Source of the DNA: an uncultured beta proteobacterium | GTDB lineage: Bacteria; Pseudomonadota; Gammaproteobacteria; Burkholderiales; SG8-41 | Reading direction: 5' to 3' | DNA length: 64,000 nucleotides | NCBI GenBank assembly: GCA_942492335.1 | Contig: CALOEN010000002.1 | Span: 60 to 64,059 of the forward strand | Shown here: piece after piece, positions 738-63,528 of the stretch | How positions within the stretch are numbered: position 1 is the first letter of the stretch | Layout of the letters: each line of letters starts with the position of its first letter | The notes under the pieces: model-generated | Told to the model about the DNA's origin: nothing | Seen by the model: the letters and a program-made list of their open reading frames with translations, nothing else | Database searches by the model: none | Program-made: the position numbers and the translations under genes

Positions 738-964
738 GTGATTTAGTGATTCAGTGATTCAGTGATTGAGTTATTTAGTGATTAAGTGATTCAGTGATTG
801 AGTGATTTAGTGATTGAGTGATTGAGTGATTAAGCAACAGCAAATACGTGAACATCTTGTGAAGGGTGTCCCAAAAATGCTTTATTGCTCCGCGACGGCG
901 GGGAGAGCGGCGGGGGATGTTGAATTGAGCTTTAATCACCCAAATTACTTAATCACTTAATCAC
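738..964. repeat. Inverted tandem-octamer array: 12 x GTGATTNA (738-833), ~98 nt unique core, 4 x TTAATCAC-like (932-964)
   Basis: Read directly from the sequence: gtgattta gtgattca gtgattca gtgattga gttattta gtgattaa gtgattca gtgattga gtgattta gtgattga gtgattga gtgattaa ... ttaatcac ccaaattac ttaatcac ttaatcac. It fills the gap between the adaptor gene and the ATPase gene. Confidence 0.95.
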
Positions 965-970
965 TAAAAA

Positions 971-1712
971 ATGTCCGAACCCCTCATCGTCACCCGCAAT
1001 CTCGCCAAGGTGTACCGCATGGAAAGCTACACCGTGACGGCGCTGCAGGGCGTGTCGGTCGAGATCGGAGCCGGAGAATTCGTGGCGGTGATGGGCCCGT
1101 CAGGATCGGGAAAATCGACCTTCATGAATCTGCTGGGCTGCCTCGATACGCCGACCAGCGGCGACTATAGTCTTGCCGGTGAGAAAGCCTCCGAGCTTTC
1201 GGGCGATGCGCTTGCGGCCATCCGCAATCGCAGAATCGGGTTCGTGTTCCAGAACTTCAATCTGCTGCCGCGCACGAGTGCGCTGGAAAACGTCGAGCTG
1301 CCGCTGCTTTATGCGCACGTTTCAGCGCAGGATCGACGCAACCGGGCGCTGGCCAGGCTCTCCGATGTCGGCCTGGCCGAACGCGCAGACCATCACCCGG
1401 CGCAGCTCTCCGGCGGGCAGCAGCAGAGGGTGGCGATTGCGCGCGCATTGGTCAACGATCCGGTGCTTATCCTCGCCGACGAACCTACGGGGGCACTCGA
1501 CTCCCGCACCAGCTTCGAAGTCATGGGGCTGTTGCAACAACTGAACCGCGGCAGGGATGACGGTGGTGCTGGTGACCCACGAACGCGACATGGCGGCATT
1601 TGCCTCCCGCATGAGTGAGTTTCCTCGATGGCGCGTCGTCGTCAACGATCAGCGGATCGCGCAAGCCGGCCGATGCCCCAGGCGATGCTGCGCGAACAGG
1701 GCGGCGGCATGA
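971..1712 (+). pseudogene. ABC transporter ATP-binding protein (MacB/LolD family); the frame is broken once (extra G near 1550-1551), possibly a sequencing error
   Basis: ORF 971-1618 has Walker [10 protein letters not shown], signature [15 protein letters not shown] and Walker B ILADEPT. After LLQQLNR the expected [23 protein letters not shown] continues in the frame starting at 1551. That frame ends at TGA 1710-1712, which overlaps ATG 1709 (ATGA). Confidence 0.85.
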
Positions 1713-1739
1713 CCGTGGCTTGCCAGCATACGCATCGCA

Positions 1740-2942
1740 TTGCGGGCGCTGCGCGTGAACAAGCTGCGCAGCATCTTGACCATGCTCGGCATCATCATCG
1801 GCGTCGCGGCGGTGATTACCATGATTGCAGTCGGCGCCGGTGCGCAGGCAAAAGTGGAAGACCAAATCAAGAGTCTCGGCTCCAATCTCATCATCCTGTT
1901 GCCGGGGTCGGTGACTTCCGGGGGGCGGCGCATGGGCGCGGGGTCGCGTTCTACACTGACGGAAGACGACGCATACGCTATTCAACGCGAAGTGACAGAC
2001 GTCCAGGCGGCCGCGCCCACGCTGCGCGGAATCGGTCAGGTGGTGGCGGGAAACAACAACTGGTCGACTGCGTTCTACGGCATTACACCCGAGTATTTCG
2101 AGGCGCGCAATTGGGTGATCGCTTCCGGCAAAAGCTTCGATCCGGCCGATGTCACCGGCTCCGGCAAAGTTGTGCTGCTCGGAGAAACGGTGGCCCGCAC
2201 TTTGTTTGGCGATAGCGATCCGGTCGGTCAGGTGGTGCGCGTGCACAAGGTTCCTATGCGGGTGATCGGCACGCTTGAGCGCAAAGGCCAGAGCCTGATG
2301 GGCCAGGACCAGGATGACGTGATCCTGATGCCGATTTCCACTGCGCGCAATCGCATTCTCGGCGGCAATGCCGCGAAGCAGCGTTCCGTGCAATCGATCT
2401 CGATCAAGGTACGCGAGGGTGCCAGCATGGCCGAGGCTGAAAGTGAGATGAGAAGGCTGTTGCGGCAGCGCCATCGTCTTCAATCCAGCCAGGAGGACGA
2501 CTTTACGCTGCGCAATCTCTCGGAAGTGCTGGGTGCGCGAGAAGAGTCGAGCCGGATCATGACGCTGCTGCTTGCCGCCGTGGCATCGGTGTCGTTGCTG
2601 GTGGGCGGCATAGGCATCATGAACATCATGCTGGTCTCGGTCACGGAACGCACGCGCGAGATCGGACTGAGGATGGCGGTCGGTGCGCGCGGGAGCGATA
2701 TCCTGTCTCAGTTCCTGGTCGAAGCAGTTACGCTGGCACTGATCGGCGGTCTGTGCGGGACTGTGCTCGGCGTGGGGGGGTCCTATGCCATCGGACATTT
2801 TGCCGGGTGGCGCATTGCGATCAATGTCCAGGCAGTGGTGCTCGCCGTCGGTTTTGCGGCGGCCATAGGCGTCTTCTTTGGCTTTTATCCTGCGCGCAAG
2901 GCCTCGCGGCTGCTGCCGATAGAGGCGCTGCGCTATGAATGA
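1740..2942 (+). CDS. ABC transporter permease, MacB/FtsX type
   Basis: N-terminal TM IRIALRALRVNKLRSILTMLGIIIGVAAVI, a large periplasmic domain, and a C-terminal FtsX bundle (GGIGIMNIMLVSVTERTREIGLRMAVGAR). The ORF-track start is TTG 1740. ATG 1709 (MT-WLASIRIAL) fits better but needs a 1-nt correction around 1712-1715. Confidence 0.88.
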   Translation: MRALRVNKLRSILTMLGIIIGVAAVITMIAVGAGAQAKVEDQIKSLGSNLIILLPGSVTSGGRRMGAGSRSTLTEDDAYAIQREVTDVQAAAPTLRGIGQVVAGNNNWSTAFYGITPEYFEARNWVIASGKSFDPADVTGSGKVVLLGETVARTLFGDSDPVGQVVRVHKVPMRVIGTLERKGQSLMGQDQDDVILMPISTARNRILGGNAAKQRSVQSISIKVREGASMAEAESEMRRLLRQRHRLQSSQEDDFTLRNLSEVLGAREESSRIMTLLLAAVASVSLLVGGIGIMNIMLVSVTERTREIGLRMAVGARGSDILSQFLVEAVTLALIGGLCGTVLGVGGSYAIGHFAGWRIAINVQAVVLAVGFAAAIGVFFGFYPARKASRLLPIEALRYE

Positions 2943-2946
2943 CCCC

Positions 2947-3082
2947 GTGATTGAGTGATTGAGTGATTAAGTGATTAAGTGATTAAGTGATTGAACCAAA
3001 CCCCTGCGCCACGGACAGCGCTCACCAAATCACCAAATCACCAAATCACCAAATCACCAAATCACCAAATCACTCAATCACC
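2947..3082. repeat. Inverted tandem-octamer array: 6 x GTGATTRA (2947-2994), 28 nt core, 7 x CACCAAAT-like (3023-3082)
   Basis: Read directly: gtgattga gtgattga gtgattaa gtgattaa gtgattaa gtgattga ... caccaaat x6, cactcaat, cacc. The right-arm unit is the reverse complement of GTGATTTG. The array starts 5 nt after the permease stop. Confidence 0.95.
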
Positions 3083-3112
3083 GTCTTTTAAGCATAGAAT
3101 AGCCCCCTGCTC

Positions 3113-3937
3113 ATGGACCTAGCCCTATACCTCAAGGCCCTGATTCTCGGTGTTGTCGAGGGCCTCACCGAATTCCTGCCTGTTTCCAGTACCGGTCACC
3201 TGATCGTCGTCGGCGACCTTCTCGGGTTCAATGACGATAAAGCCAAAGTGTTCGAGATCGTCATTCAGCTTGCTGCGATACTCGCGGTGTGCTGGGAGTA
3301 TCGGGCGCGTTTTTCCGGGGTGATACGCGGCTACGCCACCGAGGAGCCGGCGCGGCGCTTCGTTTACAATCTGGCGATCGCATTCATGCCCGCCGCGATT
3401 CTTGGGTTCCTGTTTCACAGCGCGATCAAGAGAGTGCTGTTTCACCCGGTGCCGGTGGCGCTGGCGCTGATCGTCGGCGGCGTCCTGATTTTGTGGGTCG
3501 AGCGCAGGCCGCACACCGTGACGATACGGGAAGTCGATGATATGCGCTGGCGCGATGCACTCAAGGTGGGTTTTGCCCAGGCGCTGGCGCTAATTCCGGG
3601 CACGTCGCGCGCGGGCGCGACCATCATCGGCGGGTTGTATTTCGGCATGACGCGCAAGGCCGCAACCGAATTTTCATTTTTTCTCGCCGTGCCAACGATG
3701 TTTGCAGCGGTGTTCTACGATGTTTATAAAAACCGTGCGTTGCTGAACGTGGACGATCTCGGGGTGTTTGCGGCCGGATCCGCGGCGGCTTTTGTCAGTG
3801 CGTTTTTTGCTGTGCGTGGACTGCTGCGTTATATCAGCCGCCATGACTTCAGCGTATTCGCCTGGTACCGCATCATTTTCGGATTGATTATTCTGGCCAC
3901 AGGATATACGGGCTGGATTGCCTGGTCCGCTGCCTGA
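3113..3937 (+). CDS. uppP: Undecaprenyl-diphosphate phosphatase
   Basis: 274 aa polytopic membrane protein with BacA/UppP motifs ([34 protein letters not shown]). Confidence 0.95.
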
Positions 3938-4203
3938 AGCGTTGCGGCTGTGTCGGTCTAAAGCCCATCAGGCCATGACGGATACCGTCCAACCCAATGA
4001 TTTTGTGATATAATTTCTTCATCCTGGATGGCGCGCATGTAGTTTGCGCTAACCGGATGGTCTATGGGCGGGCAGGGTCTGTGCTGTTCACTTCCACCCC
4101 ACATCATCACGACCTGGTCATGCGTTGTTGAGCGATCACACCCCCACCTTGCTCCTGAACAGGCCCTGGTCCCCGGCCCCAAATACAGAAAAGGCGGATA
4201 CAC

Positions 4204-5784
4204 ATGAACAAGACTTCTAATAAAAACCAATTCTCCGATCCCAAGTCACGGCTGATGTTACGCAACGCCACGCTGAATGACGTGCCGGCGATCTGCGAAC
4301 TCAGCAGGCGTGTATATGCAAGTACCGGCATGCACGGGTATTCGGAAGGTGCGGTAACCGGCCAGATCAATATCTTTCCCGAAGGGCAGTTTGTTTTGCT
4401 GGCAGGCGACAAGGTGGTCGGCTATTGCGCCACCTTCAGGATCAACGGCGAAATCGCGCTCAAGCCGCACACCTGGGTGGAAATCACCGGCAACGGGTAT
4501 GCTTCCCGCCACGACAACGGGGGCGACTGGCTCTACGGCATGGAGGTGTGCGTCGATCCCGAATTCCGCGGCTACCGCCTGGGGCAGCGGCTTTATAACG
4601 AACGCAAAAAACTGTGCGAATCGCTGAAACTGAAGGGCATAGTCTTCGTCGGCCGCCTGCCGGGATTGTCGCGGCACATCAAGCGCGCCGGGTCGGTGGA
4701 AAATTACGTCGAGCAGGTCAAACTCAAGCAGATTAAAGATCCCGTGCTGTCATTCCAGCTTCGCAATAATTTCGAGATCATCGAGGTAATTCCAAAGTAT
4801 CTCACCACCGACCACGAATCGATGGGGTATGGCGCGCATCTGTTGTGGCGCAATCCCAAAGTGCCGGATCAAGCCAAGGACAAGGCGCAGTCATTCGGTG
4901 GCAGGAGCGCAGACACCATACGCGTGGGCACGGTACAGTACATGCAGCGCCGCGTGCATTCCTTCGAGGAGTTCATGAGCGGCGTGGAATATTTCGTCGA
5001 TGTGGTGTCGGACTACAAGGGCGACTTCGTGGTCTTCCCGGAAATGTTCACGCTGCAGTTGCTGTCGATAGAAAATCGGGAAAGCGCCCCCGCGGACGCG
5101 ATCGAGTCGCTGACCAATTACACCCCGCGTTTCCAGGAGGCCATGCGCGAACTTGCGTTGCGCTACAACATCAACATCATCGCGGGATCGCATCCCACGC
5201 GCATGCCCAACGGCAGGGTGGAAAACATCGCGCATATCTTCCTGCGCGACGGCACCATGCACGTGCAACCCAAGATCCACCCGACGCCCAACGAAGCGCA
5301 ATGGTGGAACATCGAAGGCGGCAGCACCCTCAATGCCATCGAAACCGACTGCGGGCCGATCGGTGTGCTGATTTGCTATGACGCGGAGTTTCCCGAGTTG
5401 GTGCGACATCTGACCGACCAGGGTATTCATATCCTGTTCGTGCCTTTCTGCACCGACGAGCGGCAGAGTTTTCTGCGGGTGCGCTATTGCTGCCAGGCGC
5501 GCGCGGTCGAGAACCAGATTTACGTGGTGATGTCAGGCAACGTCGGCAATTTGCCCTATGTGTTCAACATGGACATCCAGTACGCGCAGAGCTGCATACT
5601 GACGCCTTGTGATTTTCCCTTTGCCCGCGACGGCATTGCCGCCGACACTACGCCCAACACGGAGACCGTGGCCATTGCCGATCTGCGTCCCGAGACCCTG
5701 ATTACCGCGCGCAACAACGGAACGGTGCGAAATCTGCGTGACCGGCGCCACGACCTCTACAGCGTGCAGTGGCGCGGAAAATAG
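4204..5784 (+). CDS. Bifunctional GNAT N-acetyltransferase / carbon-nitrogen hydrolase (nitrilase superfamily) fusion protein
   Basis: N-terminal GNAT fold (VVGYCATF, VDPEFRGYRLGQRLY). C-terminal nitrilase-type domain with the Glu (VVFPEMF) and Cys (GVLICYDAEFPE) motifs. Confidence 0.85.
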   Translation: MNKTSNKNQFSDPKSRLMLRNATLNDVPAICELSRRVYASTGMHGYSEGAVTGQINIFPEGQFVLLAGDKVVGYCATFRINGEIALKPHTWVEITGNGYASRHDNGGDWLYGMEVCVDPEFRGYRLGQRLYNERKKLCESLKLKGIVFVGRLPGLSRHIKRAGSVENYVEQVKLKQIKDPVLSFQLRNNFEIIEVIPKYLTTDHESMGYGAHLLWRNPKVPDQAKDKAQSFGGRSADTIRVGTVQYMQRRVHSFEEFMSGVEYFVDVVSDYKGDFVVFPEMFTLQLLSIENRESAPADAIESLTNYTPRFQEAMRELALRYNINIIAGSHPTRMPNGRVENIAHIFLRDGTMHVQPKIHPTPNEAQWWNIEGGSTLNAIETDCGPIGVLICYDAEFPELVRHLTDQGIHILFVPFCTDERQSFLRVRYCCQARAVENQIYVVMSGNVGNLPYVFNMDIQYAQSCILTPCDFPFARDGIAADTTPNTETVAIADLRPETLITARNNGTVRNLRDRRHDLYSVQWRGK

Positions 5785-5799
5785 CCTGACAGGAAAGTA

Positions 5800-6249
5800 T
5801 CAGCCCTGTATCCAGGGCAAACCTGCCGCGCGCCAGCCGCCTTTGACGTTGCGATGACCGGCGGCGTCCTTGTCGCCCTCGAAGCCTTCGAGCACGTTGT
5901 AGCACCTGGCATAGCCGGCCTGGGTGGCCAGCGCCGCGGTGTTATGCGAACGGGCGCCGCTGCGGCAAACGAACATCACCAGTGCTTCCTTGCTGACCAT
6001 TTGCTCGAGCTCGGGCAGAAAAGACGCGTTCAGTTGGTTGGCGGGATAGGTGAGGAACTCGATTTCAACGGCACCGGGAATGCGGCCGACCCAGTACCAT
6101 TCGGCGTGCGTGCGCACATCGACCAGCGTGGCGTTGGACGCTTCTTTCCAGATCTGATAGGCCTCGCCGGGCAGCAGGGCGCCTTCATAAGGCAGTCTCA
6201 TTTGCCGGGCCCGTTCGCGGGCGGTTTTCAAAATGTCATCAATAGTCAA
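5800..6249 (-). CDS. Rhodanese-like sulfurtransferase domain protein
   Basis: 149 aa with LVDVRTHAEW and the catalytic loop CRSGARS. Confidence 0.8.
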   Translation of the reverse strand: MTIDDILKTARERARQMRLPYEGALLPGEAYQIWKEASNATLVDVRTHAEWYWVGRIPGAVEIEFLTYPANQLNASFLPELEQMVSKEALVMFVCRSGARSHNTAALATQAGYARCYNVLEGFEGDKDAAGHRNVKGGWRAAGLPWIQG

Positions 6250-6355
6250 AGCAGTTCCTTTGTGTCAGGCCGCATCCGGGAGAAATGAGGTCGCTGAAAT
6301 GTATCTGGCGCAAAAACAAGGCGTTATTTTACCCGAGCCCGGAGATGATCCATCG

Positions 6356-6403
6356 TGGCGCTATAATGGTGCAAGTTATGGCATGTTCGCACCATTATGG
6401 TGC
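6356..6403. promoter_or_regulatory. Putative NtrC (enhancer) binding sites upstream of glnA
   Basis: 6389-6403 GCACCATTATGGTGC is a near-perfect match to the NtrC palindrome TGCACCA-N3-TGGTGCA. A weaker site TGGCGCTATAATGGTGCA lies at 6356-6373 and overlaps a TATAAT hexamer (6362-6367). Confidence 0.6.
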
Positions 6404-6465
6404 CGATGAATTTTAGTGTTTTGCTCAAATCCCTTATGGCACAATGCTTTCCTTATAAAAATTGC

Positions 6466-6481
6466 TGGCACATTTTGTGCT
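6466..6481 (+). promoter_or_regulatory. Sigma-54 (-24/-12) promoter of glnA
   Basis: tGGcacattttgtGCt has the GG and GC spaced as in TGGCAC-N5-TTGC. It lies ~56 nt upstream of the glnA ATG and ~65-110 nt downstream of the NtrC-like sites. Confidence 0.65.
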
Positions 6482-6536
6482 CATATCAAGGTTTTGTATT
6501 TCCCGTTTCCGTCTTACCCACCGTTAGGAGAATGTG

Positions 6537-7949
6537 ATGGCATCCGCCGCAGATGTAATGAAAATGGTCAAAGACAACGAAGTCAGGTTTGTTGATTTCC
6601 GCTTCACCGATACCCGTGGCAAGGAGCAGCATGTATCGGTACCGGCCAAAGCGTTTACTGATGATAAATTCACCGACGGCCATGCTTTCGATGGCTCTTC
6701 GATTGCCGGCTGGAAGGGCATACAGGCCTCCGACATGCTGTTGATGCCGGACCCGGATTCCGTGCGCATGGACCCCTTTACCGACGAGCCGACGCTGATT
6801 TTGACCTGTGACGTGGTCGAGCCGTCGGATGGCAAGGGCTATGACCGCGATCCGCGTTCCATTGCCAAGCGTGCCGAGGCCTTCCTCAAATCAACCGGGA
6901 TTGGCGATACCGCTTACTTCGGTCCCGAGCCCGAGTTCTTTGTGTTCGACTCGGTGACGTGGAGCATAGACATGTCCGGCTCGATGGTGAAAATCAAGTC
7001 GGAAGAGGCGGCCTGGGCTTCGAACGAGGACGTGGAAGGCGGCAACATGGGACACCGGCCGTCGGTCAAGGGCGGCTATTTCCCGGTGGCGCCGGTCGAT
7101 TCGCTGCAGGACATCCGCTCGGCGATGTGCATGGCGCTCGAAGAACAGGGCGTCGAGGTGGAGGTCCATCACCATGAAGTGGCAACGGCGGGCCAATGCG
7201 AGATCGGCACGAAGTTCGAAAGCCTCGTGAAACGCGCGGACTGGAATCAGATCCTCAAGTACACCGTGCATAATGTTGCGCACTCTTACGGCAAGACGGC
7301 GACTTTCATGCCCAAGCCCATCGTCGGTGATAACGGCTCGGGCATGCACGTGCATCAGTCGATCTGGAAAGGCGGCAAGAACCTGTTCAGCGGCAACGGT
7401 TATGCCGGGCTGTCCGAGCTTGCGCTCTACTACATCGGCGGCATCATCAAGCACGCCAAGGCGCTGAACGCCATCACCAATCCCGGAACCAATTCCTACA
7501 AGCGGCTGGTTCCCGGCTTCGAGGCGCCGATCAATCTTGCCTACTCGGCCCGCAACCGCTCGGCCTCAATACGCATTCCCCACGTCATGAGCCCGAAAGC
7601 ACGGCGCATCGAAGTGCGCTTTCCGGATCCGACCGCCAATCCCTATCTCGCATTCACGGCGATGGTGATGGCGGGGCTCGACGGCATCCAGAACAAGATT
7701 CATCCTGGCGATCCCATCGACAAGAACCTTTATGATCTGCCGCCGGAAGAAGCGAAGAAAGTGCCCAATGTATGCTCGTCGCTCGACATGGCGCTTGAGC
7801 ACCTCGACAAGGACCGCGAGTTCCTGACCCGCGGCGGGGTGTTCTCCAACGACATGATCGATGCGTATATCGAGCTCAAGATGGAAGAGGTCACGGCGTT
7901 CCGCGTGACCACTCATCCGCTCGAGTTTCAGCTGTACTACAGCCTGTAA
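6537..7949 (+). CDS. glnA: Glutamine synthetase type I
   Basis: Typical GSI sequence ([35 protein letters not shown] adenylylation loop). AGGAG lies 7 nt before ATG 6537; the ORF track starts one codon earlier at GTG 6534. Confidence 0.97.
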
Positions 7950-7972
7950 TCCTGAGCAGAATGTTGCGGGAA

Positions 7973-7999
7973 GGGCGGGCGTGTGCCCGCCCTTTTTGC
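7973..7999 (+). terminator. Rho-independent terminator after glnA
   Basis: GGGCGGGC gtgt GCCCGCCC followed by TTTTTGCTTT. Confidence 0.8.
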
Positions 8000-8120
8000 T
8001 TTCAATTAACTGGCGCACCATATGGGTGCATTGCTAATTCTTTTTTCCTGACATAGACTTAGGCACGTATTTGAGCAGAATGATGTCAACCCAAACCACC
8101 GTCTGGGGGTTAAAGTAGAT

Positions 8121-8609
8121 ATGAAAGTGCGGGAGAAAAGCATGCGTGCCCTGGTTTTGGCCTTATTGGTGGTATTTCCGGCATTTACGGTGCATGGCGC
8201 GGATACCTTGTATGAATGCATCGACAAGAATGGAAACAAGCGCTTTACCAACATCAGTTCGGAAGCCAAGGGCTGCAAAGTGATAAGCGTCACGCCACCC
8301 AGCGTCGTTTCATCGCCTAAACCTGCCGCCAAGGGCGCCGCCCCCCCCGCCAACTTTCCCAGCGTCGATGCCCAGACGCAAAAGCAGCGCGATACCGATC
8401 GCCGCCGCATTCTGGAACAGGAACTTGCCGGCGAGCAAAAGCTCCTCGATCAGGCCCAAAAAGAACTCTCCGAGCAGGAAGCCATCCGTCTTGGCAGCGA
8501 GCGCAACTATCAACGTGTGCTCGACCGGCTTGAACCGTACAAGAAAAAGGTCAAGTTGCACGAAGATAACGTCGCTAATCTCAAGAAAGAGCTGGCGAAC
8601 ACCAGGTAA
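8121..8609 (+). CDS. DUF4124 domain protein with a coiled-coil C-terminus (secreted or periplasmic)
   Basis: Signal peptide MRALVLALLVVFPAFTVHG, DUF4124-like LYECIDKNGNKRFTN, and a charged heptad-rich tail. An uncharacterised gene between glnA and ntrB is, from memory, common in betaproteobacteria. The start may be ATG 8142. Confidence 0.7.
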   Translation: MKVREKSMRALVLALLVVFPAFTVHGADTLYECIDKNGNKRFTNISSEAKGCKVISVTPPSVVSSPKPAAKGAAPPANFPSVDAQTQKQRDTDRRRILEQELAGEQKLLDQAQKELSEQEAIRLGSERNYQRVLDRLEPYKKKVKLHEDNVANLKKELANTR

Positions 8610-8725
8610 ACAGACGGGCACAGGTATCGCGATATGAGCACGCGAGCACCAGACGTCATTTTCAGCCACCCGCATACTGGCGCGGTTCTTGCTCACTCAA
8701 TGCCATTCCCATCTAGAGTCGAATA

Positions 8726-9790
8726 ATGACACCAGCCGCACTTTCCGGCCTCGAATTGCTCGCGGCAGCCGTGGTGCTGGTGGACCGGAAACTGATCGTG
8801 CATTACATGAACCCGTCAGCTGAAAATCTGTTCGAACTCAACATCAAGAACGTTGCCGGTGCGGCGCTCGGTGATTTGTTTGATGGTGCCGCCGTGCTGT
8901 CGGCGGCGGTCAATTACGCACGCGAGCACAATAGCAGCTACACCGAGCATGCTCTCGAGTTGGGCATCGCCGGCAGGAAGCTGCATTTGTCATGCACCGT
9001 AACTCCCGTGGGGCTGGAGGAGCTCAAAAGCGGCGAGGACTTCCTGCTGGAATTCCAGCATACAGAACAACAGCTCAGGATTGCGCGCGAGGAGCGTCTG
9101 CTCGAACAAAGCCGGGCCAATCGCGAGCTGATTCGCAATCTCGCGCATGAAATCAAGAATCCGCTGGGCGGAATCCGCGGGGCGGCGCAGCTTCTGGAAC
9201 GCGAGCTCGAGCGTCCGAATCTGCACGAATATACGCAGGTGATCATGAAGGAGACGGACCGGCTGCAGCAACTGATGGACCGCCTGCTTACGCCGCACCG
9301 CCTGCCGCAACCCACGCTGGTCAACGTGCACGAAGTGCTGGAGCGCGTGCGCAGCCTGATCCTCGCTGAATACCCGCGGATCGTAATCCGCCGCGATTAC
9401 GATACCAGCCTGCCGTTGCTCAAGGGTGACAAGGAGCAACTGATTCAGGCCGTGCTCAATATCGTGCGCAACGCGGCGCAGGCGCTTTCAGGGGAAGGCG
9501 AGATCAGGCTCGGGACCCGTATCGCACGGCAGGTGACCCTGGCGCGCAAACGCTACCGCCATGCGCTGGAGCTGACAATTTGCGATAACGGTCCGGGCGT
9601 TCCGGACGTAATACGCGAGCAGATTTTTTATCCTCTGGTGTCGGGACGCGATGGCGGCAGCGGCCTGGGGCTGACGCTCGCCCAAAACTTCATTTCAGAG
9701 CATCACGGCACCATCGCATTTGAAAGCGAACCGGGCAGCACTTGCTTCACTATTTTGTTGCCCGTCAATGAACCAGGTAATGGGTCATGA
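8726..9790 (+). CDS. ntrB: Nitrogen regulation sensor histidine kinase NtrB
   Basis: PAS N-terminus, H-box LAHEIKNPLGGIRGAAQLL, N box NIVRNAAQA, G boxes DNGPGVP and GSGLGLTLA. The stop TGA 9788-9790 lies inside a heptamer array. Confidence 0.92.
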   Translation: MTPAALSGLELLAAAVVLVDRKLIVHYMNPSAENLFELNIKNVAGAALGDLFDGAAVLSAAVNYAREHNSSYTEHALELGIAGRKLHLSCTVTPVGLEELKSGEDFLLEFQHTEQQLRIAREERLLEQSRANRELIRNLAHEIKNPLGGIRGAAQLLERELERPNLHEYTQVIMKETDRLQQLMDRLLTPHRLPQPTLVNVHEVLERVRSLILAEYPRIVIRRDYDTSLPLLKGDKEQLIQAVLNIVRNAAQALSGEGEIRLGTRIARQVTLARKRYRHALELTICDNGPGVPDVIREQIFYPLVSGRDGGSGLGLTLAQNFISEHHGTIAFESEPGSTCFTILLPVNEPGNGS

Positions 9791-9916
9791 GTGATGGGTA
9801 ATGAGCACAACATAGTGTCTGGTTGCATCATCCGCATGTTGTCATTGACCTGCTGCAAGACGGGTAATGCACATGTCCTGGTGACCTTCGCCCCCCATTA
9901 CCCATTACCCATTACT
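9776..9916. repeat. Inverted tandem-heptamer array: GGTAATG GGTCATG AGTGATG GGTAATG (9776-9803), 92 nt core, 3 x CATTACC/T (9896-9916)
   Basis: Read directly. It occupies the whole ntrB-ntrC intergenic space. Confidence 0.9.
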
Positions 9917-9930
9917 CCTCACGGAAGCAT

Positions 9931-11337: not shown

Positions 11338-11350
11338 GCAAAGAGAGTAG

Positions 11351-11393
11351 TCGGGATTTACAGGATTAATATAAATAGCCTTGTAAATCCCGA
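11351..11393 (+). terminator. Perfect 12-bp stem-loop after ntrC (possible terminator; no clear U tract)
   Basis: TCGGGATTTACA - 19 nt AT-rich loop - TGTAAATCCCGA. An alternative pairing CAGGATTAA (11361-11369) with TTAATCCTG (11405-11413) is also possible. Confidence 0.4.
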
Positions 11394-11494
11394 TCTCAAT
11401 GCTGTTAATCCTGTCCATTGTTTCAGGTCATTTAGACAGCCTCCCATCCGACATGGTTTAGAATCGCTGCTTCGATCACGATTGCGGAGTTGCG

Positions 11495-12850: not shown

Positions 12851-12931
12851 ATCAACAGATGACCCACTCGTGCCCGCATTCCGGTAGTCCGGAATCGAAT
12901 CTGGACTGAACGCAGGGCCGGGGACGGACGA

Positions 12932-13699
12932 TTACAGGTCGAGCGTGGCGATGACCGGCGCATGATCTGAAGGGCGTTCCGCCTTGCGCGGCTCGACATC
13001 GACGGTACACGCCGTGCAGCATTGCGCAAGTTCCCCGGAGACCAGAATGTGATCGATGCGCATGCCCATCTTGCGGCGGAACGCATACATGCGGTAATCC
13101 CACCAGGTAAACGATTTCTCCGGTTGATCGAAAAGCCGGAACGCGTCCTTTAGTCCTGCCGCAACCAACATATTGAATGCGTCACGCTCGGGCTTGCTGC
13201 AAAGTACTTTTCCTTCCCATGCCGCAGGGTCATGCACGTCGCGCTCTTCAGGCGCAATATTGAAGTCACCGAGTACGGCGAGCCGCGGAAAATGACTGAG
13301 CTCGTCCCTGAGCCACGGCGTAAGGGCAGCCAGCCATTTGAGCTTGTATTGATATTTGTCCGAATCGACATCCTGGCCATTCGGCACATAGAGACAGATC
13401 ACGCGTACGTCGTTGATGGTGGCGGCCAGGACACGTTTCTGGGGATCGTCGAACGCGGGAATGGCGGTAACGGCTCCGGTTGCCGGGGTGCGGCTCAGGA
13501 TCGCTACGCCGTTGTAGGTTTTCTGCCCGCTGAATGCAGCGTGATAGCCGGCGGCTTCGATGTCGGCCAGCGGGAAATTCGCGTCCTCGAGTTTGGTTTC
13601 CTGCAGGCACAGCGCGTCCGGCTGGTGCTGCGCGAGCCAGTCGAGCACTTGCGGCAGCCGGACTTTCAGCGAATTGACGTTCCAGGTCGCGAGTTTCAT
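12932..13699 (-). CDS. xthA: Exodeoxyribonuclease III
   Basis: [21 protein letters not shown], and the C-terminal SDHAPV motif. The start overlaps the upstream stop (ATGA). Confidence 0.94.
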
Positions 13700-14130
13700 T
13701 GTTTTCGCACGAAGTAGATGTCGAATTTCTGCTTCGCTACGGCCTGATAGTAGACTCCCTTCAGTCGATCGCCCGCGGGATCGTAGGTGAGCTCGTAGGT
13801 AGACCCCGCGTAGCCCCCCGCCTGCAACTCGAAGCTGACGCGCAACGCCGAGCCCTCCTGCGATGCCAGCGCCCTGGCGAAGGGAAGCGGATTGGGATTG
13901 AAATACATCGCCTCAAGGCGGCCGTCCCGGGCGATGTTTTTGATCACGATTGTGTAGCCGCCGTCGGGCCGAACCCAGGCGCCCTTCAACACATCGATAT
14001 TGATATTTTTTGCCATTGCCGGAGTGCCCGCCCCTTTCGTGGCAGGCGCAGCACTTTGCGCTGTTGCGGTACCGCTCAAGGCCAACGCCAGCACTAAACC
14101 CAGTAACAAAGAGATACTTGATTTTCTCAT
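13696..14130 (-). CDS. Secreted protein of unknown function
   Basis: Clear signal peptide [25 protein letters not shown]. It is translationally coupled to xthA. I recognise no motif. Confidence 0.6.
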
Positions 14131-19504: not shown

Positions 19505-19539
19505 GGATATAGGATTCAGGATTCAGGATTCGGGACTCA
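19505..19539. repeat. Tandem heptamers GGATATA GGATTCA GGATTCA GGATTCG GGACTCA (single arm) abutting the prlC start codon
   Basis: Read directly. On the minus strand it reads GAATCCT repeats immediately 5' of the prlC ATG. Confidence 0.85.
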
Positions 19540-20874: not shown

Positions 20875-20971
20875 GGTAATGAGTAATGGGTAATGGGTAA
20901 TGTGAGTTACCCGAGACCCGACTGCCGGTGACCGGGGGTTTACTCTTTACCCATGGTTCATTACTCATCAC
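20875..20971. repeat. Inverted tandem-heptamer array: GGTAATG AGTAATG GGTAATG GGTAATG (20875-20902), core, then TTTACTC TTTACCC ATGGTTC ATTACTC ATCAC (20938-20971)
   Basis: Read directly. It fills the gap between the pyrB stop (20976) and the pyrC' start (20867). Confidence 0.9.
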
Positions 20972-22523: not shown

Positions 22524-22997
22524 TTATTTTTGGGTGGATGAAAAATAGGCCGCGAGTATCTCGCGCGCCGCCGCCTGATCAAGCGCTCCCTTGAGCTTGG
22601 CGCCGCGGACGCCCGCTTCGCGCAACGCGGCTTCGGCCGCCCATGAGGTCAGCCGCTCATCCACCATCTGTACCGGGATGCCAAACCGGCCCTCGAGGCG
22701 CTGGGCAAAGCGGCGGCACAACCGGCTTATTTCGTGCTCGGTGCCGTCGGCGTGTGCCGGCAGTCCGACGACCAGGCAAGCCGGCTGCCATTCCGCAATC
22801 AGGGCGCCGATGGCGGCAAAGCGGGCGCTGTTGTCCTCGGCAGCGATGGTGGTGAGTGGGTGGGCAAGGCCGGTCTGGGTGTCGCCGACCGCAACACCGA
22901 TGCGCTTTTCCCCGAAGTCGAACGCCAAAACCGTGCCGGTTTTGGCGGAGTGTTGAGTGGTTTTCAGGCCCTGGGGTTTTAACTTATCACTCATCAC
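22524..22997 (-). CDS. ruvX: Holliday junction resolvase-like protein RuvX (YqgF)
   Basis: GTVLAFDFGEKRIGVAVGD and the C-terminal DERLTS motif. The annotated N-terminus MMSDK is encoded by the TCATCAC repeat array, so the true start is uncertain. Confidence 0.85.
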   Translation of the reverse strand: MMSDKLKPQGLKTTQHSAKTGTVLAFDFGEKRIGVAVGDTQTGLAHPLTTIAAEDNSARFAAIGALIAEWQPACLVVGLPAHADGTEHEISRLCRRFAQRLEGRFGIPVQMVDERLTSWAAEAALREAGVRGAKLKGALDQAAAREILAAYFSSTQK

Positions 22998-23011
22998 TCA
23001 TCACCCATGAC
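22984..23011. repeat. Tandem heptamers TTATCAC TCATCAC TCATCAC CCATGAC (single arm) between the yqgE stop and the ruvX start
   Basis: Read directly. On the minus strand it reads GTGATGA-type units. Confidence 0.85.
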
Positions 23012-43574: not shown

Positions 43575-43700
43575 GGCAATGGTAAACGGTAAGCGATGGG
43601 CGGTAAATGGCTGAAGGCCGAAAGCGGAATGCGGTGAGCGGTTCAACCACGAAACCCTGAGTTGCTTTTTCGGCTTACTGCTCACCGCTTACTTTGCACG
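43575..43700. repeat. Degenerate inverted heptamer array (GGCAATG GTAAACG GTAAGCG ... GCGGTGA / CGGCTTAC TGCTCAC CGCTTAC TTTGCAC)
   Basis: A 7-nt periodicity is visible on the left arm (43575-43641). The right arm (43671-43700) contains the reverse complements of GGTAAGCG and CGGTGAGC. It lies in the divergent rpiA/ilvA promoter region. Confidence 0.7.
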
Positions 43701-48356: not shown

Positions 48357-48491
48357 ATGACTCTTAAGCTCGTCATCGGCAACAAGAATTATTCTTCGTG
48401 GTCGGTGCGGGAATGGGGGGCGGCGGCGTGCCGGGAAACCGGGTTGGTCACGGCTGACGAGCCTTATGCCAGCGTGAAAGGTGAATCGTGA
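48357..48491 (+). pseudogene. Relic of a glutathione S-transferase N-terminus (44 codons)
   Basis: MTLKLVIGNKNYSSWS matches the characteristic N-terminus of YfcF-type GSTs. The rest does not, and the frame ends in the GTGAATC repeat array. Confidence 0.45.
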
Positions 48492-48585
48492 ATCGTGAAA
48501 CGAGAGCCCCCTCTTTTCCCTTACCGGGAAAGAAGGTAAGGACCGAGCGCTGTTCTCCATTCACGATTCACCATTTACGATTCAC
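48474..48585. repeat. Inverted tandem-heptamer array: GTGAAAG GTGAATC GTGAATC GTGAAAC (48474-48501), core with its own hairpin CCTTACC-N9-GGTAAGG, then CATTCAC GATTCAC CATTTAC GATTCAC (48558-48585)
   Basis: Read directly. It ends 6 nt before the cca ATG. Confidence 0.92.
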
Positions 48586-48591
48586 GGCCTC

Positions 48592-49717
48592 ATGAAAATA
48601 TATTCAGTAGGCGGCGCGGTGCGCGACGAATTGCTGGGCCTGCCGGTCAAGGACCGCGATTATGTCGTGGTCGGCGCCTCTCCCGAGGAGATGGTCCGGC
48701 TGGGTTACAAGCCGGTGGGCAAGGACTTTCCGGTGTTCCTGCACCCGAAGACGCATGAGGAATACGCGCTGGCGCGCACCGAACGCAAGGTCGCGCGCGG
48801 TTACCACGGCTTCGAAATCAGCGCTTCGCCCGATGTCACGCTGGAGCAGGACTTGGCGCGGCGCGACCTCACGATCAACGCCATCGCTAAAGACGAGCAA
48901 GGCGCCATTACCGACCCGTATCATGGCGCGGCCGATCTCAAGGCCGGTGTGTTGCGCCACGTAAGCCCGGCGTTTACCGAAGATCCGGTGCGCGTCCTGC
49001 GCGTGGCGCGCTTTGCCGCGCGCTTTGGCTTTGTCATCGCCGCGGAAACCCAGGCGCTGATGCGCAGCATGGTGGCAGAGGGCGAGGTCGATGCGCTGGT
49101 CGCCGAGCGCGTATGGCAGGAAGTGGCGAGTGGCCTGATGGAACAGAGTCCCTCGCGCATGTTCAAGGTGCTGCGCGAATGCGGTGCGCTCAGTCGCGTC
49201 ATGCCCGAGATCGATGCCTTGTTCGAATCCGCGTGCTGCCCTCGATGCGCTGGATGCCGCGGCGCTGGCCGGATCTGCGCTCGAGGTGCGGTTCGCTGTG
49301 CTGGCGCGCACGCTGACGCCGCCGGCAGTCGAAGCACTTGCCGAGCGTCTGCGCGCGCCGGCCGCATGCCGCGACCTGGCGTTGCTCGCGGCGCGCCATG
49401 CCCATGCCATCACCGGTGCCGCAGCGCTCAATGCCGAGGCTTTGCTCGAACTATTCAATGACTCGGATGCGTGGCGCCGCCCTGAGCGCTTTACAGATTT
49501 GATGACGGCTGCGCTGGTCGCCGAGCCGGCAGCGCCGGCGTCACGCGCCAGACTGGAGCGTGCGTGGCAGGCCGCGGTGGCAGTCAACGCTGGGAAGATC
49601 GCGCAGGCCGCGGGCAAGGATGGCGACATCCGCGATCGCATCAACTCGGCGCGACTGGAAGCTGTGCGCCATACGCGAACATCGGAAAGCGGTGATGAGT
49701 TAATGAGTAATGCGTGA
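48592..49717 (+). pseudogene. cca: CCA tRNA nucleotidyltransferase, frame broken once around 49222-49235; possibly a sequencing error
   Basis: Class II NTase head ([24 protein letters not shown]) in ORF 48592-49461 up to PEIDALFE. It continues [24 protein letters not shown]...DAWRRPERF in ORF 49184-49717. Confidence 0.85.
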
Positions 49718-49767
49718 TGAGTGACGGGTGAACGCAGTCCACGATTTTGCTCATTACCCATTACCCG
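49691..49767. repeat. Inverted heptamer array (GGTGATG AGTTAATG AGTAATG CGTGATG AGTGACG GGTGAAC / CTCATTACC CATTACC)
   Basis: Read directly. The last 9 codons and the stop of cca lie in the left arm. Confidence 0.85.
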
Positions 49768-54708: not shown

Positions 54709-54836
54709 GCCACAGAGAACACAGAGAAAATCTTGAATCTAAGTCTGCAATTGACACAAGAGTCTGCCACTCAGCGCTATGAAAGTTTTTTCGTGGCCGA
54801 TTCATTTTTGTTGCCTTCCTCTGTTTTCTCTGTGGC
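54709..54836. repeat. Inverted repeat of short purine-rich units: GCCACAGAGAACACAGAGAAAA (54709-54730) / CCTCTGTTTTCTCTGTGGC (54818-54836)
   Basis: Read directly. It has the same arms-plus-core architecture as the heptamer arrays and sits between the reductase stop and the ttcA start. Confidence 0.8.
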
Positions 54837-59625: not shown

Positions 59626-59633
59626 TATCCTGC

Positions 59634-61049: not shown

Positions 61050-61067
61050 GAAAAACTCCTGAATATT

Positions 61068-61137
61068 GGGGCGCGGTTCCATATGCAAGGCCGTATTCCG
61101 AGCCTGACCAGATGACCCTGGTTGCAGCGCCCCTCGG
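61068..61137 (-). promoter_or_regulatory. SAH riboswitch-like aptamer 2 (RBS-proximal)
   Basis: Minus-strand RNA CCGAGGGGCGCUGCAACCAGGGUCAUCUGGUCAGGCUCGGAAUACGGCCUUGCAUAUGGAACCGCGCCCC. P1 is GGGGCGC/GCGCCCC, P2 is ACCAG/CUGGU, the pseudoknot is CCGAG/CUCGG, and the conserved UGCAAC, CAGGCUCGG and AAC blocks are present. It ends 7 nt before AGGAG. Confidence 0.65.
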
Positions 61138-61150
61138 AAAATCGACCCAC

Positions 61151-61187
61151 AAAAAAATAGCGCTCGCACCGTGTCCGGTGCGAGCGC
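61151..61187 (-). terminator. Intrinsic terminator forming the expression platform of SAH aptamer 1
   Basis: GCGCUCGCACCG gaca CGGUGCGAGCGC followed by UAUUUUUUU. The 5' half of the stem shares GCGCUC with the aptamer P1 3' strand. Confidence 0.8.
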
Positions 61188-61253
61188 CGTTAATTCTTGC
61201 TGAGCCTGGCCGGCGCATGGGGCTATACCCCCGCCGGTCGCAACGCTCCTCAG
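61182..61253 (-). promoter_or_regulatory. SAH riboswitch aptamer 1
   Basis: Minus-strand RNA CUGAGGAGCGUUGCGACCGGCGGGGGUAUAGCCCCAUGCGCCGGCCAGGCUCAGCAAGAAUUAACGGCGCUC matches the SAH element consensus blocks GAGGAGCGyUGCGAC ... CAGGCUC ... AACGGCGCUC. It lies upstream of ahcY-metF, as is typical in beta- and gammaproteobacteria. Confidence 0.8.
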
Positions 61254-61280
61254 CAGTTGCTATTTTAACTCAAAATCCGG

Positions 61281-62444
61281 CTATATGCCCGCGTCCGCCT
61301 TGAGCACAGCAGCCTTATCCGTCGCCTCCCAGGTAAATTCCGGTTCATCGCGACCGAAATGGCCATGCGCGGCAGTCTTGGTGTAGATCGGGCGCAGCAG
61401 ATCCAGCGACAGGATGATGCCTTTGGGACGCAGATCGAAATGTTTTTCGACCAGCTTGGCGATTTTTTCCTCGCTGATCTTGCCGGTGCCGAAGGTCTCT
61501 ACCAGCACGCTCACGGGGCGCGCCACGCCGATGGCATAGGCAATCTGGATTTCACATTTCTTCGCCAGACCCGCTGCCACGATGTTTTTTGCAACATGGC
61601 GCGCAGCATAAGCCGCCGAGCGGTCGACCTTGGAGGGATCCTTGCCGGAAAACGCGCCGCCACCGTGTCGCGAGTAGCCGCCGTAGGTGTCCACGATAAT
61701 TTTTCGTCCTGTAAGCCCCGTGTCACCCATCGGACCGCCGATGACGAAGCGCCCGGTCGGGTTGATCAGATAACGCGTGTCCTTGGTGATCATGTTCTTC
61801 GGCAGCACCGGTTTGACGATTTCCTCGATCACCGCTTCGGTCAGCGGTTCGTGGGAAATCTCGGGATTGTGCTGGGTCGAAATCACCACGGTGTCGATGT
61901 GATGCGGCTTGCCGTCCACATAACGCACACTGACCTGGGACTTCGCATCGGGCCGCAGCCACGGCAGGCGGCCGTCTTTGCGCAGTTCGCTCTGGCGTTC
62001 CATCAGGCGGTGGGCGTAGAAAATCGGCATCGGCATCAACTGCGGCGTCTCGTCGCACGCAAAGCCGTACATGAGCCCCTGGTCACCCGCGCCCTGTTCG
62101 AGGTCCGTGCCCGTGCCTTCATTCACGCCTTGCGCGATGTCCGGAGACTGGCGGTCGAACGCGGTCAGCACCGCGCAGGTCTGGTAATCGAAGCCGACAT
62201 CGGAGCTGTCGTAACCTATGCGTTTGATGATGTCGCGCGCGATATCCGCGTAATCGATACGGGCCTCGGTCGTCACTTGTCCGGCCATCATCACGAGCCC
62301 GGTCGCCACCAGCGTTTCGGCGGCCACGCGGCCGTGCTTGTCCTGGGTCAGAATGGCATCGAGTACGGCATCGGAGATCTGATCAGCTACTTTATCGGGG
62401 TGGCCTTCGGAAACTGATTCGGACGTAAACAGGAAGTCGCTCAT
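61281..62444 (-). CDS. metK: S-adenosylmethionine synthetase
   Basis: [21 protein letters not shown] and GGGAFSGKD motifs; 387 aa. Confidence 0.97.
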
Positions 62445-62515
62445 GGTGTGCGTTTCGTTAATTGAAAAAAGGCGCTTAGAATATCAGATAAGCTCCGATT
62501 TATAAAACAAAATCC

Positions 62516-63403
62516 ATGATAATCCCGTTGTTGCGACTGATCGCGCGGCTGCCGCTGGCGTGGCTGCACTGTGCCGGCGCCGCGTTGGGCTGGCTGGTCT
62601 ATCGGACCTCCCCCACCTATGCGGCGCGCCTCAGGGATAACCTTTTCTCCAGCGGGGTATGCACGGAAGCGGCGACCTGCGCGGTGCTGTTGCGCCAGGT
62701 CGTGGCGGAAACCGGAAAAGGCGCGGCCGAACTGATCGCGGTCTGGTTCGGTGCTGACGAACGTGTCGCGCAGTGGGTACGGTGCGACACCTGGCACGTC
62801 GTCGAGCAGGCCCAGCGCGGCGGCAAAGGACTGATATTCCTTACGCCGCATCTCGGATGTTTCGAAATATCCGCGCTCTATGGCGCACAGCGCCTGCCGA
62901 TTACCGTGCTCTATCGTCCGCCCAAACTGCGCTGGATAGAGCCGCTGATGGTCGCGGGCCGCAGCCGCTGGCAGTCGAACCTGGCGCCCGCGAGCCTGCG
63001 CGGCGTGCGCACGCTGTACAAGGCGTTGCAGCGCGGAGAAGCGGTAGGCCTGCTGCCGGATCAGGCGCCGGGCGTGGGCGAAGGCGCATGGGCTGATTTT
63101 TTTGGGCGCCCTGCCTATACCATGACGCTGGTGGCGCGGCTGCAAAAAGCCACGGGCGCGGCGGTGATCATGGCGTTTGCCGAGCGTTTGCCGCACGGCG
63201 CCGGTTACCATTTACATTTGCAACAGGTGCCGGATTCGGGTCTCGACGAGACCGCGCTCAATCGCGCGATCGAGGCGATTGTGCGCACCTGTCCTGCGCA
63301 GTATCTGTGGAGCTATAACCGTTACAAGGTGCCCGCAGGGGCGGAGAAACCAGGGATGAAGGGAATCAGGGATGAGGGCGGAAAGAGCGGGGATGAGGGA
63401 TGA
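62516..63403 (+). CDS. Lipid A biosynthesis (Kdo)2-lipid IVA acyltransferase (LpxL/HtrB family)
   Basis: HX4D/E motif TPHLGCFE and LPDQ. The C-terminal ~15 codons and the stop lie inside the GGGATGAG repeat array, so the true end is uncertain. Confidence 0.85.
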   Translation: MIIPLLRLIARLPLAWLHCAGAALGWLVYRTSPTYAARLRDNLFSSGVCTEAATCAVLLRQVVAETGKGAAELIAVWFGADERVAQWVRCDTWHVVEQAQRGGKGLIFLTPHLGCFEISALYGAQRLPITVLYRPPKLRWIEPLMVAGRSRWQSNLAPASLRGVRTLYKALQRGEAVGLLPDQAPGVGEGAWADFFGRPAYTMTLVARLQKATGAAVIMAFAERLPHGAGYHLHLQQVPDSGLDETALNRAIEAIVRTCPAQYLWSYNRYKVPAGAEKPGMKGIRDEGGKSGDEG

Positions 63404-63528
63404 GGGCAGAAGGATGAGGGTAACAGCGATGAATCTGGCGTGGCCAGCTAGTCGTAACATTCCCGATGACGAATCTGAGAAGGAACTTCGGTTTTTTTTC
63501 ATCCCTCATCCCTCATCCCTCATCCCTC
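63353..63528. repeat. Inverted heptamer/octamer array: GGGATGAA GGGAATCA GGGATGAG ... GGGATGAG GGATGAG GGCAGAA GGATGAG (63353-63421), ~78 nt core, 4 x CATCCCT (63500-63528)
   Basis: Read directly. It lies between the two acyltransferase genes, and a T8 run precedes the right arm. Confidence 0.92.

Follow-up and report, generated by a model that had tools for sequence, protein, structure and literature searches.

The 64-kb stretch of contig CALOEN010000002.1 analysed here over its full length (hereafter the window) carries ordinary housekeeping genes, among them lolD/lolE-like genes, bacA, glnA, ntrBC, pyrB, rpiA, ilvA, metK, and ahcY, and in the spacers beside them a set of short tandem arrays of 7- or 8-nt units, most of which occur as two inverted arms around a core. 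These arrays are hairpin-forming microsatellite pairs that evolve in place, with slippage acting on each arm independently and a loop tolerant of insertions. The best matches of the flanking proteins were to metagenome-assembled genomes (MAGs) named ‘Burkholderiales bacterium’ and ‘Betaproteobacteria bacterium SG8_41’ (78–79% identity), and three metagenome contigs (L001, L002, and L083) encode flanking proteins at 88–94% identity. Judged by these matches, the host is an uncultured betaproteobacterium of a Burkholderiales lineage near SG8_41. The cyanobacterial setting implied by the original prediction, which had been made from the sequence without database searches, was set aside on the strength of the protein searches, and with it membership in the cyanobacterial STRR family, as the units differ and 8-nt periods are present too.

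Paired tandem arrays in the window

Tandem arrays were located with Tandem Repeats Finder (TRF) and the pairing of arms with an inverted-repeat finder, and direct reading of the sequence was in agreement. With the poly-G stretch at 51.4–51.9 kb masked, the window held seven period-7 arrays (0.50 ± 0.62 in 30 first-order Markov shuffles) and four period-8 arrays (0.13 ± 0.34 in shuffles), ~14–30 times the shuffle level. Periods 9–12 were essentially missing from the masked window, and the surplus at period 6 reflects ordinary coding periodicity. TRF placed the period-8 arrays at 738–831 (11.8 copies), 943–965, 2947–2992 (5.8 copies), and 3022–3082 (7.6 copies), and period-7 arrays at 9894–9915, 19496–19540, 20875–20902, 22982–23008, 48473–48499, 48559–48586, 49692–49724, 49752–49766, 63390–63420, and 63499–63528. 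The arms joined by the inverted-repeat finder were 21–46 nt long with 78–90% complementarity and a spacing of 39–175 nt (2947/3036, 46 nt, 83%; 48473/48554, 33 nt, 82%; 771/943, 29 nt, 90%; 63390/63499, 28 nt, 89%; 9777/9896, 27 nt, 78%; 20876/20940, 25 nt, 80%; 54709/54816, 21 nt, 90%).

The architecture first proposed, nine pairs and two single arms at eleven loci, is real by TRF, the inverted-repeat finder, and the shuffles, though the pairs are of uneven quality: seven are clear (738, 2947, 9776, 20875, 48474, 49691, and 63353) and two are weaker (43575, degenerate; 54709, marginal), beside the single arms at 19505 and 22984. The list of loci was not complete, as a two-unit mini hairpin of similar flavour at 11351..11393 (GGGATTTACAGG ... 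CCTTGTAAATCCC) had been missed. By a codon-usage gene map, ~11 of the ~32 spacers of ≥100 nt hold an array, approximately one-third.

At least seven unit types lie side by side in the 64 kb, with both periods present. The usual form is G-T-R-A-N3-4, G-rich and C-poor, with TGA or TAA, and most units have a GTGA/GTAA core that recurs at a fixed 7–8 nt spacing. That the unit differs between loci is true of the set as a whole and not of every pair of loci, since GTGATTNA is common to loci 738 and 2947 and GGTAATG/GTGATGA to loci 9776, 20875, 22984, and 49691. The long hairpins with freedom of register that had been suggested are borne out by the predicted folds (−30 to −85 kcal/mol), in which ~20–45 base pairs join arm to arm in imperfect stems with register shifts possible.

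Array 1 begins 5 nt past the stop codon of a periplasmic LTXXQ-like gene (37–732) with a 5′ arm of 12 copies of GTGATTNA (738..833), continues through a core (834..932) homologous to that of L083, and closes with a 3′ arm of four TNAATCAC-type units (933..964) that ends 6 nt before the ATG of an ABC ATPase (lolD-like) gene at 971. A GC-rich hairpin resembling repetitive extragenic palindromic (REP) elements (CTCCGCGACGGCGGGGAG, 903–920) lies in this core and is conserved in L083; in the relative L012, the spy–lolD spacer (2400–2640) is filled by similar CCCTCTCCCCGC...GCGGGGAGAGGG hairpins instead of an array. The 5′ arm of array 2 consists of six copies of GTGATTNA (2947..2994), with the stop TGA of the lolE-like gene (2940–2942) in the array register, and the 3′ arm of 7.6 TCACCAAA/TCACTCAA units (3022..3082) is followed by a conserved −10-like TAGAAT and then by the bacA ATG at 3113. 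The −10-like element, GTA(G/A)AAT, is conserved 9–14 nt upstream of the bacA ATG in every relative (window 3094–3112; L002–L024 and L083–L085), whether the spacer has an array or none, and this suggests a promoter with a very short leader directly after the right arm.

Array 3 (9776..9916), in the ntrB–ntrC spacer, has four GGTAATG-type units, a core of ~85 nt, and three CCATTAC units, with the ntrB stop codon inside the 5′ arm. Array 5 (20875..20971; four GGTAATG units, ~35 nt core, degenerate CATTAC units) lies between two minus-strand genes, a pyrB-like gene (stop 20976) and an amidohydrolase gene (start 20867). The degenerate GTAAGCG/GTGAGCG pair of array 7 (43575..43700), between the divergent genes rpiA (minus strand) and ilvA (plus strand), does not appear in the TRF list yet folds at −58 kcal/mol. 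Four GTGAATC-type units, a core of ~56 nt, and four GATTCAC-type units make up array 8 (48474..48585), which ends 6 nt short of a PolyA_pol/CCA-type gene whose ATG is at 48592. Array 9 (49691..49767) is composed of ~6 GTGATGA/GTAATGA units, a short loop, and 2.5 CATTACC units and lies 20 nt upstream of the ATG of a GST gene (49788). The boundary of the gene upstream of array 9 is uncertain because, within 48592–49717, the PolyA_pol/CCA-adding-type gene is only 289 amino acids long and is overlapped by an open reading frame (ORF) in another frame (49184–49717), so that the region may hold a frameshift or an assembly error. Array 11 (63353..63528), between two lipid A acyltransferase genes, has ~8 GGGATGA/GGGAATC-type units capable of forming a G-quadruplex, a core of ~70 nt, and 4.3 TCATCCC units, and the stop codon of the first gene is inside its 5′ arm.

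The marginal locus (54709..54836), flanked by an SDR gene (stop 54702) and a gene for a PP-loop ATPase, has two CACAGAGAA units of 9–10 nt per arm, the second arm being the inverse complement, around a core of ~80 nt and is nearer to a plain 21-nt inverted repeat. At 19505..19539, a single arm of ~5 GGATTCA units reads TGAATCC on the minus strand and runs up to the ATG of an oligopeptidase A-like gene (17450–19504), and at 22984..23011 another of ~4 TCATCAC units (GTGATGA on the minus strand) lies between the stop of an algH-like gene (23017) and ruvX.

Evolution in place at orthologous spacers

The gene order spy-lolD-lolE-bacA-...-ntrB-ntrC is kept in ~16 relatives, and because independent assemblies from other samples show matching architecture in the corresponding spacers, an assembly artefact is excluded. 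A scan of metagenomes with BacA added only three of 80 new loci (L083–L085) to the array-bearing clade, and the others were without synteny and without paired arrays of this kind. Density across the clade ranges from none in 13–21 kb to five arrays in 8.5 kb (0 to ~0.6 per kb). Paired arrays of this kind are essentially absent from the taxa scanned outside the clade, and by this sampling of sequences the arrays are a hallmark of one uncultured Burkholderiales clade.

Of the 19 lolE–bacA spacers compared, 14 hold a pair of inverted arrays, namely that of the window and those of 13 relatives (L002, L004, L008–L010, L012, L013, L017, L018, L021, and L083–L085), and the pairs are built from different units. 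The 8-nt unit GTGATTNA is found in the window, L083, L002, L085, L010, and L017, a second 8-nt unit (GTGACTNN) in L004, and the 7-nt unit GGTAATT/GGTGACT in L008, L009, L012, and L013, while L021 has GTGACGA, L084 has AGTKKRC, and L018 has GTAAGCG/GTGAGCG with a 28-nt higher order. Three further relatives (L003, L005, and L011) have only a one-unit short hairpin, GGTGA...TCAC, and two (L006 and L024) have a bare spacer of 32–34 nt and no hairpin. The hairpin persists down to 65% BacA identity, with the sequence of both arms fully replaced in concert. Local alignments of left arms against right arms gave a mean score of 20.2 on the diagonal vs 11.0 off it, each left arm scoring best with a right arm from the same locus or subgroup, and the loci with unique units (L018, L021, and L084) scored 25, 24, and 16 with their own arm and ≤14 elsewhere. 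For three orthologues, RNAalifold returned a stem of 30 pairs, 3 of them (3/30) with compensatory double changes, and the lolE stop codon inside the stem.

Arm copy number varies between relatives, as the original prediction had anticipated, and the differences are of whole units. The left arm of array 1 has 12 units in the window vs 5 in L083, a gap of 56 nt (seven units) beside a homologous core, and array 2 has 6/8 units (left/right) in the window, ~2.5/6 in L083, and 3/3 in L002. The cores, or loops, range from ~10 to ~240 nt across relatives, and that of L012 holds an unrelated inverted-repeat element. An extra single arm, (GTGATTGA)5, stands right after bacA in L083, the closest relative (3824–3869), with no counterpart in the window (3938–4203) and illustrates a recent gain or loss. 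As units are replaced, the complementarity of the arms is maintained by some force, which could be selection for pairing, correction templated by the hairpin, or both.

The same comparison bears on whether the arrays are miniature mobile elements (MITE, REPIN, or foldback-like) with terminal inverted repeats made of tandem subrepeats. Their architecture does recall the ends or subterminal repeats of foldback transposons, and the element inside the L012 loop is a further point in that direction; the loci, however, have no common core, terminal sequence, or target-site duplication, their units differ, and orthologous sites are occupied over deep divergence by diverged units in which both arms have switched in concert. 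Rfam gave no hit, the flanks examined showed no sign of a transposase, and a mobile origin is already largely refuted and can be given next to no credence, in line with the initial view that these are not copies of one transposed sequence; MITEs were rejected on the same grounds. REP/BIME/REPIN families were also rejected, as units and cores differ by locus and arm matches across unit groups are at background level, and no RAYT (Y1 transposase) domain was found among the scanned ORFs of the window. CRISPR arrays, which have repeats of 24–48 nt and unique spacers, do not correspond to units of 7–8 nt arranged head to tail without spacers. The exclusion of REP/BIME and CRISPR had been part of the initial description and stands. 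Rfam covariance models run on the window gave no hit to the arrays at the gathering score and matched only two S-adenosylhomocysteine (SAH) riboswitches.

Several other candidates were dropped. A consensus scan of positions 1–20000 put no intrinsic terminator at the arrays, the loops measure 10–110 nt, and the tails after the 3′ arm have 0–5 T in 10 nt, with five reached only at 2947 and 54709. Mimicry of the anti-Shine-Dalgarno sequence by TCACC arms, GNRA motifs, and telomere-like addition at breaks were set aside from the sequence because each fits only some units or predicts direct, not inverted, arrays.

The regular spacing of the GTGA/GTAA core invites the thought that a protein binds the arrays by recognising a short motif at periodic intervals, with the hairpin competing with binding; such a protein might, like HutP or TRAP, read URA or GTRA every 7–8 nt on single-stranded RNA, or might bind DNA. 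The recurrence of GTGAATC, GTGACGA, GGATGAG, and GTAAGCG units at non-orthologous sites in different genomes is consistent with this, and binding by S1, Csp, or CsrA-type proteins has been proposed for start-adjacent TAACTGA repeats (MacGregor 2015, PMC4679880). Nevertheless, we consider it very unlikely: the units GGATTCA, GGCAGAA, CACAGAGAA, and AGTKKRC lack the core, strict complementarity of the arms and the compensatory changes point to pairing and not to a sequence read by protein, and no candidate protein was identified.

Polarity, coding punctuation, and a possible role

Polarity was scored on 33 paired elements listed by hand. The 5′ arm has more G than C in all of them (33/33); each element being an inverted repeat, this is true of either strand, and both G-rich arms point towards the core. 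A blind scan for inverted repeats with periodic arms in the window and clade was G-first at 19:0, and ordinary inverted repeats from unrelated taxa were split 93:100, with no bias. Because most units include a TGA or TAA and neither period is divisible by three, the 5′ arm closes two to three reading frames on either strand in eight of the nine window pairs. The 3′ arm closes no frame in seven of the nine; by our own reading of the arm sequences, the 3′ arm is nearly without G and so has no ATG, GTG, or TTG. Both the G-first polarity and the three-frame stop content are regularities beyond those first noted, and they appear to be new with respect to the literature.

Placement relative to genes was measured for eight co-directional pairs. 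Four of them have a 5′ arm that starts 4–6 nt past the upstream stop codon, three have one that runs over the upstream ORF's end and provides the stop, and in one pair it lies 124 nt downstream; all eight have a 3′ arm that ends 6–30 nt ahead of the following start codon. In most lolE–bacA orthologues, the stop codon is in register as the first unit of the array. The loci are thus nearly, and not strictly, intergenic as had been claimed, since the left arms at 9776 and 63353, and perhaps also that at 49691, extend over the final codons of the ORF before them, whose stop they provide. Whatever the orientation of the genes, the 3′ end of a gene faces a stop-rich G/T arm and the 5′ end faces a start-codon-free A/C arm. 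A special deficit of Shine-Dalgarno motifs downstream of the arrays was considered and dropped as uninformative, as a strong motif lies within 20 nt of only 7 of the 54 starts predicted in the window; the lineage makes little use of the motif, or else the start calls are rough.

A polarity that is symmetric on both strands is what a property of the duplex would give, and the arrays might therefore act as DNA, through a cruciform, slipped DNA, or a G-quadruplex that influences supercoiling, replication, or transcription, or as a recombination hotspot. The near-equal stability of sense and antisense folds and the G-quadruplex capability of array 11 (GGGATGA/GGGAATC), like that of the Xanthomonas repeats, agree with such a role. 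We hold it to be highly improbable, as G3 tracts occur in only one of the nine pairs, placement follows stop and start codons and not replication features, and extrusion of a cruciform with loops of 30–110 nt is kinetically unfavourable.

We favour instead an account in which the arrays are chromosomal hairpins, not mobile, that evolve in place, with a likely role in intercistronic or 3′-end RNA structure for which the balance of probability is about even. Each is taken to be an intergenic stem-loop in which slipped-strand mispairing has multiplied a unit of 7 or 8 nt in both arms. The arrays would be co-transcribed with their neighbours and the RNA would fold into stems, the base of which would bring the upstream stop codon beside the downstream start region; the stem might then act as a substrate or processing site for RNase III, as a barrier to exonucleases, or as a device that couples cistrons. 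Stems of ~20–45 bp are in the substrate range of RNase III, and an RNA stem-loop is favoured because the predicted stems fall in that range and because the hmw1A hairpin of Haemophilus influenzae, described below, offers a precedent. There are two candidate explanations for the polarity. One is translational hygiene, with stops after every gene and a stretch without start codons before the next. The other is avoidance of Rho, which would have free access to a C-rich arm if that arm came first and would find no free loading site on one that is paired as soon as it is made.

Several observations weigh against this role. Transcription, folding, and processing of the arrays are all inferred. Isolated mismatches in the stems, as a sign of selection on the sense RNA, are only weakly suggestive: G.T pairs outnumber A.C pairs 16 to 3, a ratio that becomes 16:6 after one more co-directional locus is included, and the loci are not independent. 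Fold energies of the sense and antisense strands show no consistent difference, and their comparison was dropped as a test of RNA function. No regulatory effect was found for the Xanthomonas repeats (Rehm et al., PMC4692102). The ntrB–ntrC pair occurs in only 4 of 15 relatives (window, L001, L007, and L021), spy–lolD arrays occur only in the window, L083, and L004, the last with arms of two different units, and some members of the clade have no arrays over 13–21 kb, a patchiness which suggests that individual elements are dispensable. In addition, the inner units of array 2 are unlike between the arms (GTGATTAA vs the complement of TCACCAAA at 2947–3082), so that expansion is not always mirrored. 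Most of the variation in copy number is regarded as near neutral.

The main rival is that the arrays are a mutational by-product of which the cell makes no use: the 7–8 nt units of this clade would be prone to slippage, small palindromes with two units per arm would run away in length, and complementarity would come only from shared ancestry and occasional template switching within the hairpin. Mrazek et al. in 2007 reportedly concluded that long repeats of 5–11 bp units reflect a tendency to expand and not a function. The gain and loss of arrays among close relatives with densities of 0 to ~0.6 per kb, the unequal copy numbers of paired arms (12 vs 4, 6 vs 8, and 2.5 vs 6), and the unlike inner units all accord with a by-product. 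Polymerase slippage is likewise cited for heptamers by Rehm et al. (PMC4692102), whose Xanthomonas repeats yielded no function. This reading is possible but less likely than the favoured one, since the lolE–bacA hairpin lasts to 65% BacA identity through a full and concerted turnover of sequence, slippage alone would not impose an absolute G-first polarity (33/33, 19:0), and the deletion bias of bacteria should remove useless inserts of 100–270 nt.

The favoured role in RNA structure could also be extended. In a wider reading, which we think unlikely, hairpins of convergent heptamer or octamer arrays would be a general, selection-maintained RNA punctuation, here and in Xanthomonas, in which the stem clamps stop to start. 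A register-tolerant stem would set the coupling or insulation of cistrons via unzipping by ribosomes, cleavage by RNase III, or both, and the G-first polarity would provide three-frame stops and a start-free leader for the next gene and would hide the C-rich arm from Rho. If this were true, changes of copy number by slippage would give operons a built-in means of tuning their stoichiometry.

Three further features of the window lie apart from the arrays. Two complete tandem SAH riboswitch aptamers (61062–61257, minus strand; 59.6 and 48.8 bits) occur between metK (61281–62444) and ahcY, and because the second overlaps the 5′ extension of the longest ahcY ORF, the true ahcY start must be near 61082 or further downstream. 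At 51486–51860, a run of 18 G is followed ~140 nt later by ~210 nt of nearly pure G/A low-complexity sequence that adjoins or falls within a cytochrome-c-like ORF (51638–52456, minus strand) and looks like a poly-G artefact of two-colour chemistry or a chimeric assembly join rather than biology. Upstream of the algH-like gene, ~700 nt of apparently non-coding sequence (23758–24456) has four copies, in both orientations, of a ~30 nt GC-rich repeat (GGATGCGACCCCGGAGC...), a family distinct from the arrays.

Significance and comparison with known repeat systems

Heptamer repeats have been known from bacteria since 1990 and are abundant in several phyla. As it stands, the present result overturns nothing and gives a sharper description that bears on the long-standing question of their role. 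The clade amounts to a clean natural experiment, with one site and one architecture built from different units, so that structure can be separated from sequence, and the absolute G-first polarity and three-frame stops are simple regularities that constrain any mechanism. If the hairpins are functional, they would be a widespread and currently unannotated post-transcriptional element; if they are neutral, they illustrate how a third of a genome's longer spacers may come to be occupied through slippage and palindromy. In either case the arrays are a practical hazard for the assembly of MAGs and for the calling of gene starts and stops.

The STRR heptamers of heterocystous cyanobacteria, reportedly described by Mazel et al. 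in 1990, are tandem intergenic repeats with units such as CCCCAGT, and heptamers of Nostoc have the units GGGGAYT, TTTTGAA, and GACYAAT. Like the window arrays they are tandem, intergenic, numerous, often adjacent to start codons, and of several unit types, but they are mostly single arms, from another phylum and with other units. REP, BIME, and REPIN elements are abundant intergenic hairpins, often between co-directional genes, that stabilise the 3′ ends of mRNA. They have a genome-wide consensus of 20–40 nt and spread by RAYT, whereas the window arrays have no common consensus, have tandem arms, and evolve in place. Among the long simple-sequence repeats of free-living bacteria with units of 5–11 bp, surveyed by Mrazek et al. 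in 2007, heptamers are reportedly over-represented, and expansion by slippage is the proposed cause; that survey is not known to have treated inverted pairing, polarity, or conservation of position.

The TAACTGA repeats of marine Beggiatoaceae comprise 169 direct sets and one inverted set of a single unit, with horizontal spread proposed (MacGregor 2015, PMC4679880). They are adjacent to start codons, comparable to the single arm at 19505–19539 that runs into an ATG, and differ from the arrays in being mostly direct single arms of one unit. The hmw1A transcript of H. influenzae has in its 5′ untranslated region a long hairpin with an (ATCTTTC)n array as one of its arms. RNase III cleaves this hairpin, and shifts in the number of repeats are driven by the hairpin itself, by transcription, and by RNase III (Rapun-Araiz et al. 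2025, PMC12721329). This is an experimental precedent for the proposed mechanism, to be set beside stems in the window that are predicted only; hmw1A differs in being a single phase-variable virulence locus with one repetitive arm and the opposite polarity (C/T-rich arm first).

The closest system is that of Xanthomonas campestris and X. axonopodis, in which GGGAATC forms 183–186 arrays with 70–75 convergent inverted pairs per genome (Rehm et al. 2015, PLoS One, PMC4692102). Those arrays are intergenic, ~28 nt from the upstream ORF, mostly between co-directional genes, and transcribed, and 83% of the X. campestris (Xcc) repeats keep their gene context in X. axonopodis (Xac), with length variable and the type, pair or single, preserved (PMC4692102). 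Paired inverted heptamer arrays are consequently not undescribed, as the original prediction had supposed, and its claim to novelty is weakened, yet not removed, by this precedent. The likeness extends to tandem intergenic heptamers in convergent arrays able to form a stem-loop, to G-rich arms that converge with the same polarity, to a position conserved between related genomes with variable length and the pair or single type kept, and to a location closer to the upstream ORF in mostly co-directional spacers. Xanthomonas differs in having one dominant G3 unit (GGGAATC/GGGANTN), which has been read via G-quadruplexes, whereas the window arrays have at least seven units, periods of both 7 and 8 nt, G3 tracts only at 63353–63528, and a betaproteobacterial host. 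Three-frame stops, arms that abut stop codons, and the concerted replacement of units are seen here and are not described for Xanthomonas. The occurrence in this betaproteobacterial clade, the presence of several units and both periods within a single genome, the joint replacement of units in both arms at orthologous sites, and the universal polarity all appear to be new. Apart from the single G3 unit, the window arrays agree in architecture and placement with the convergent pairs of Xanthomonas and are of one kind with them.

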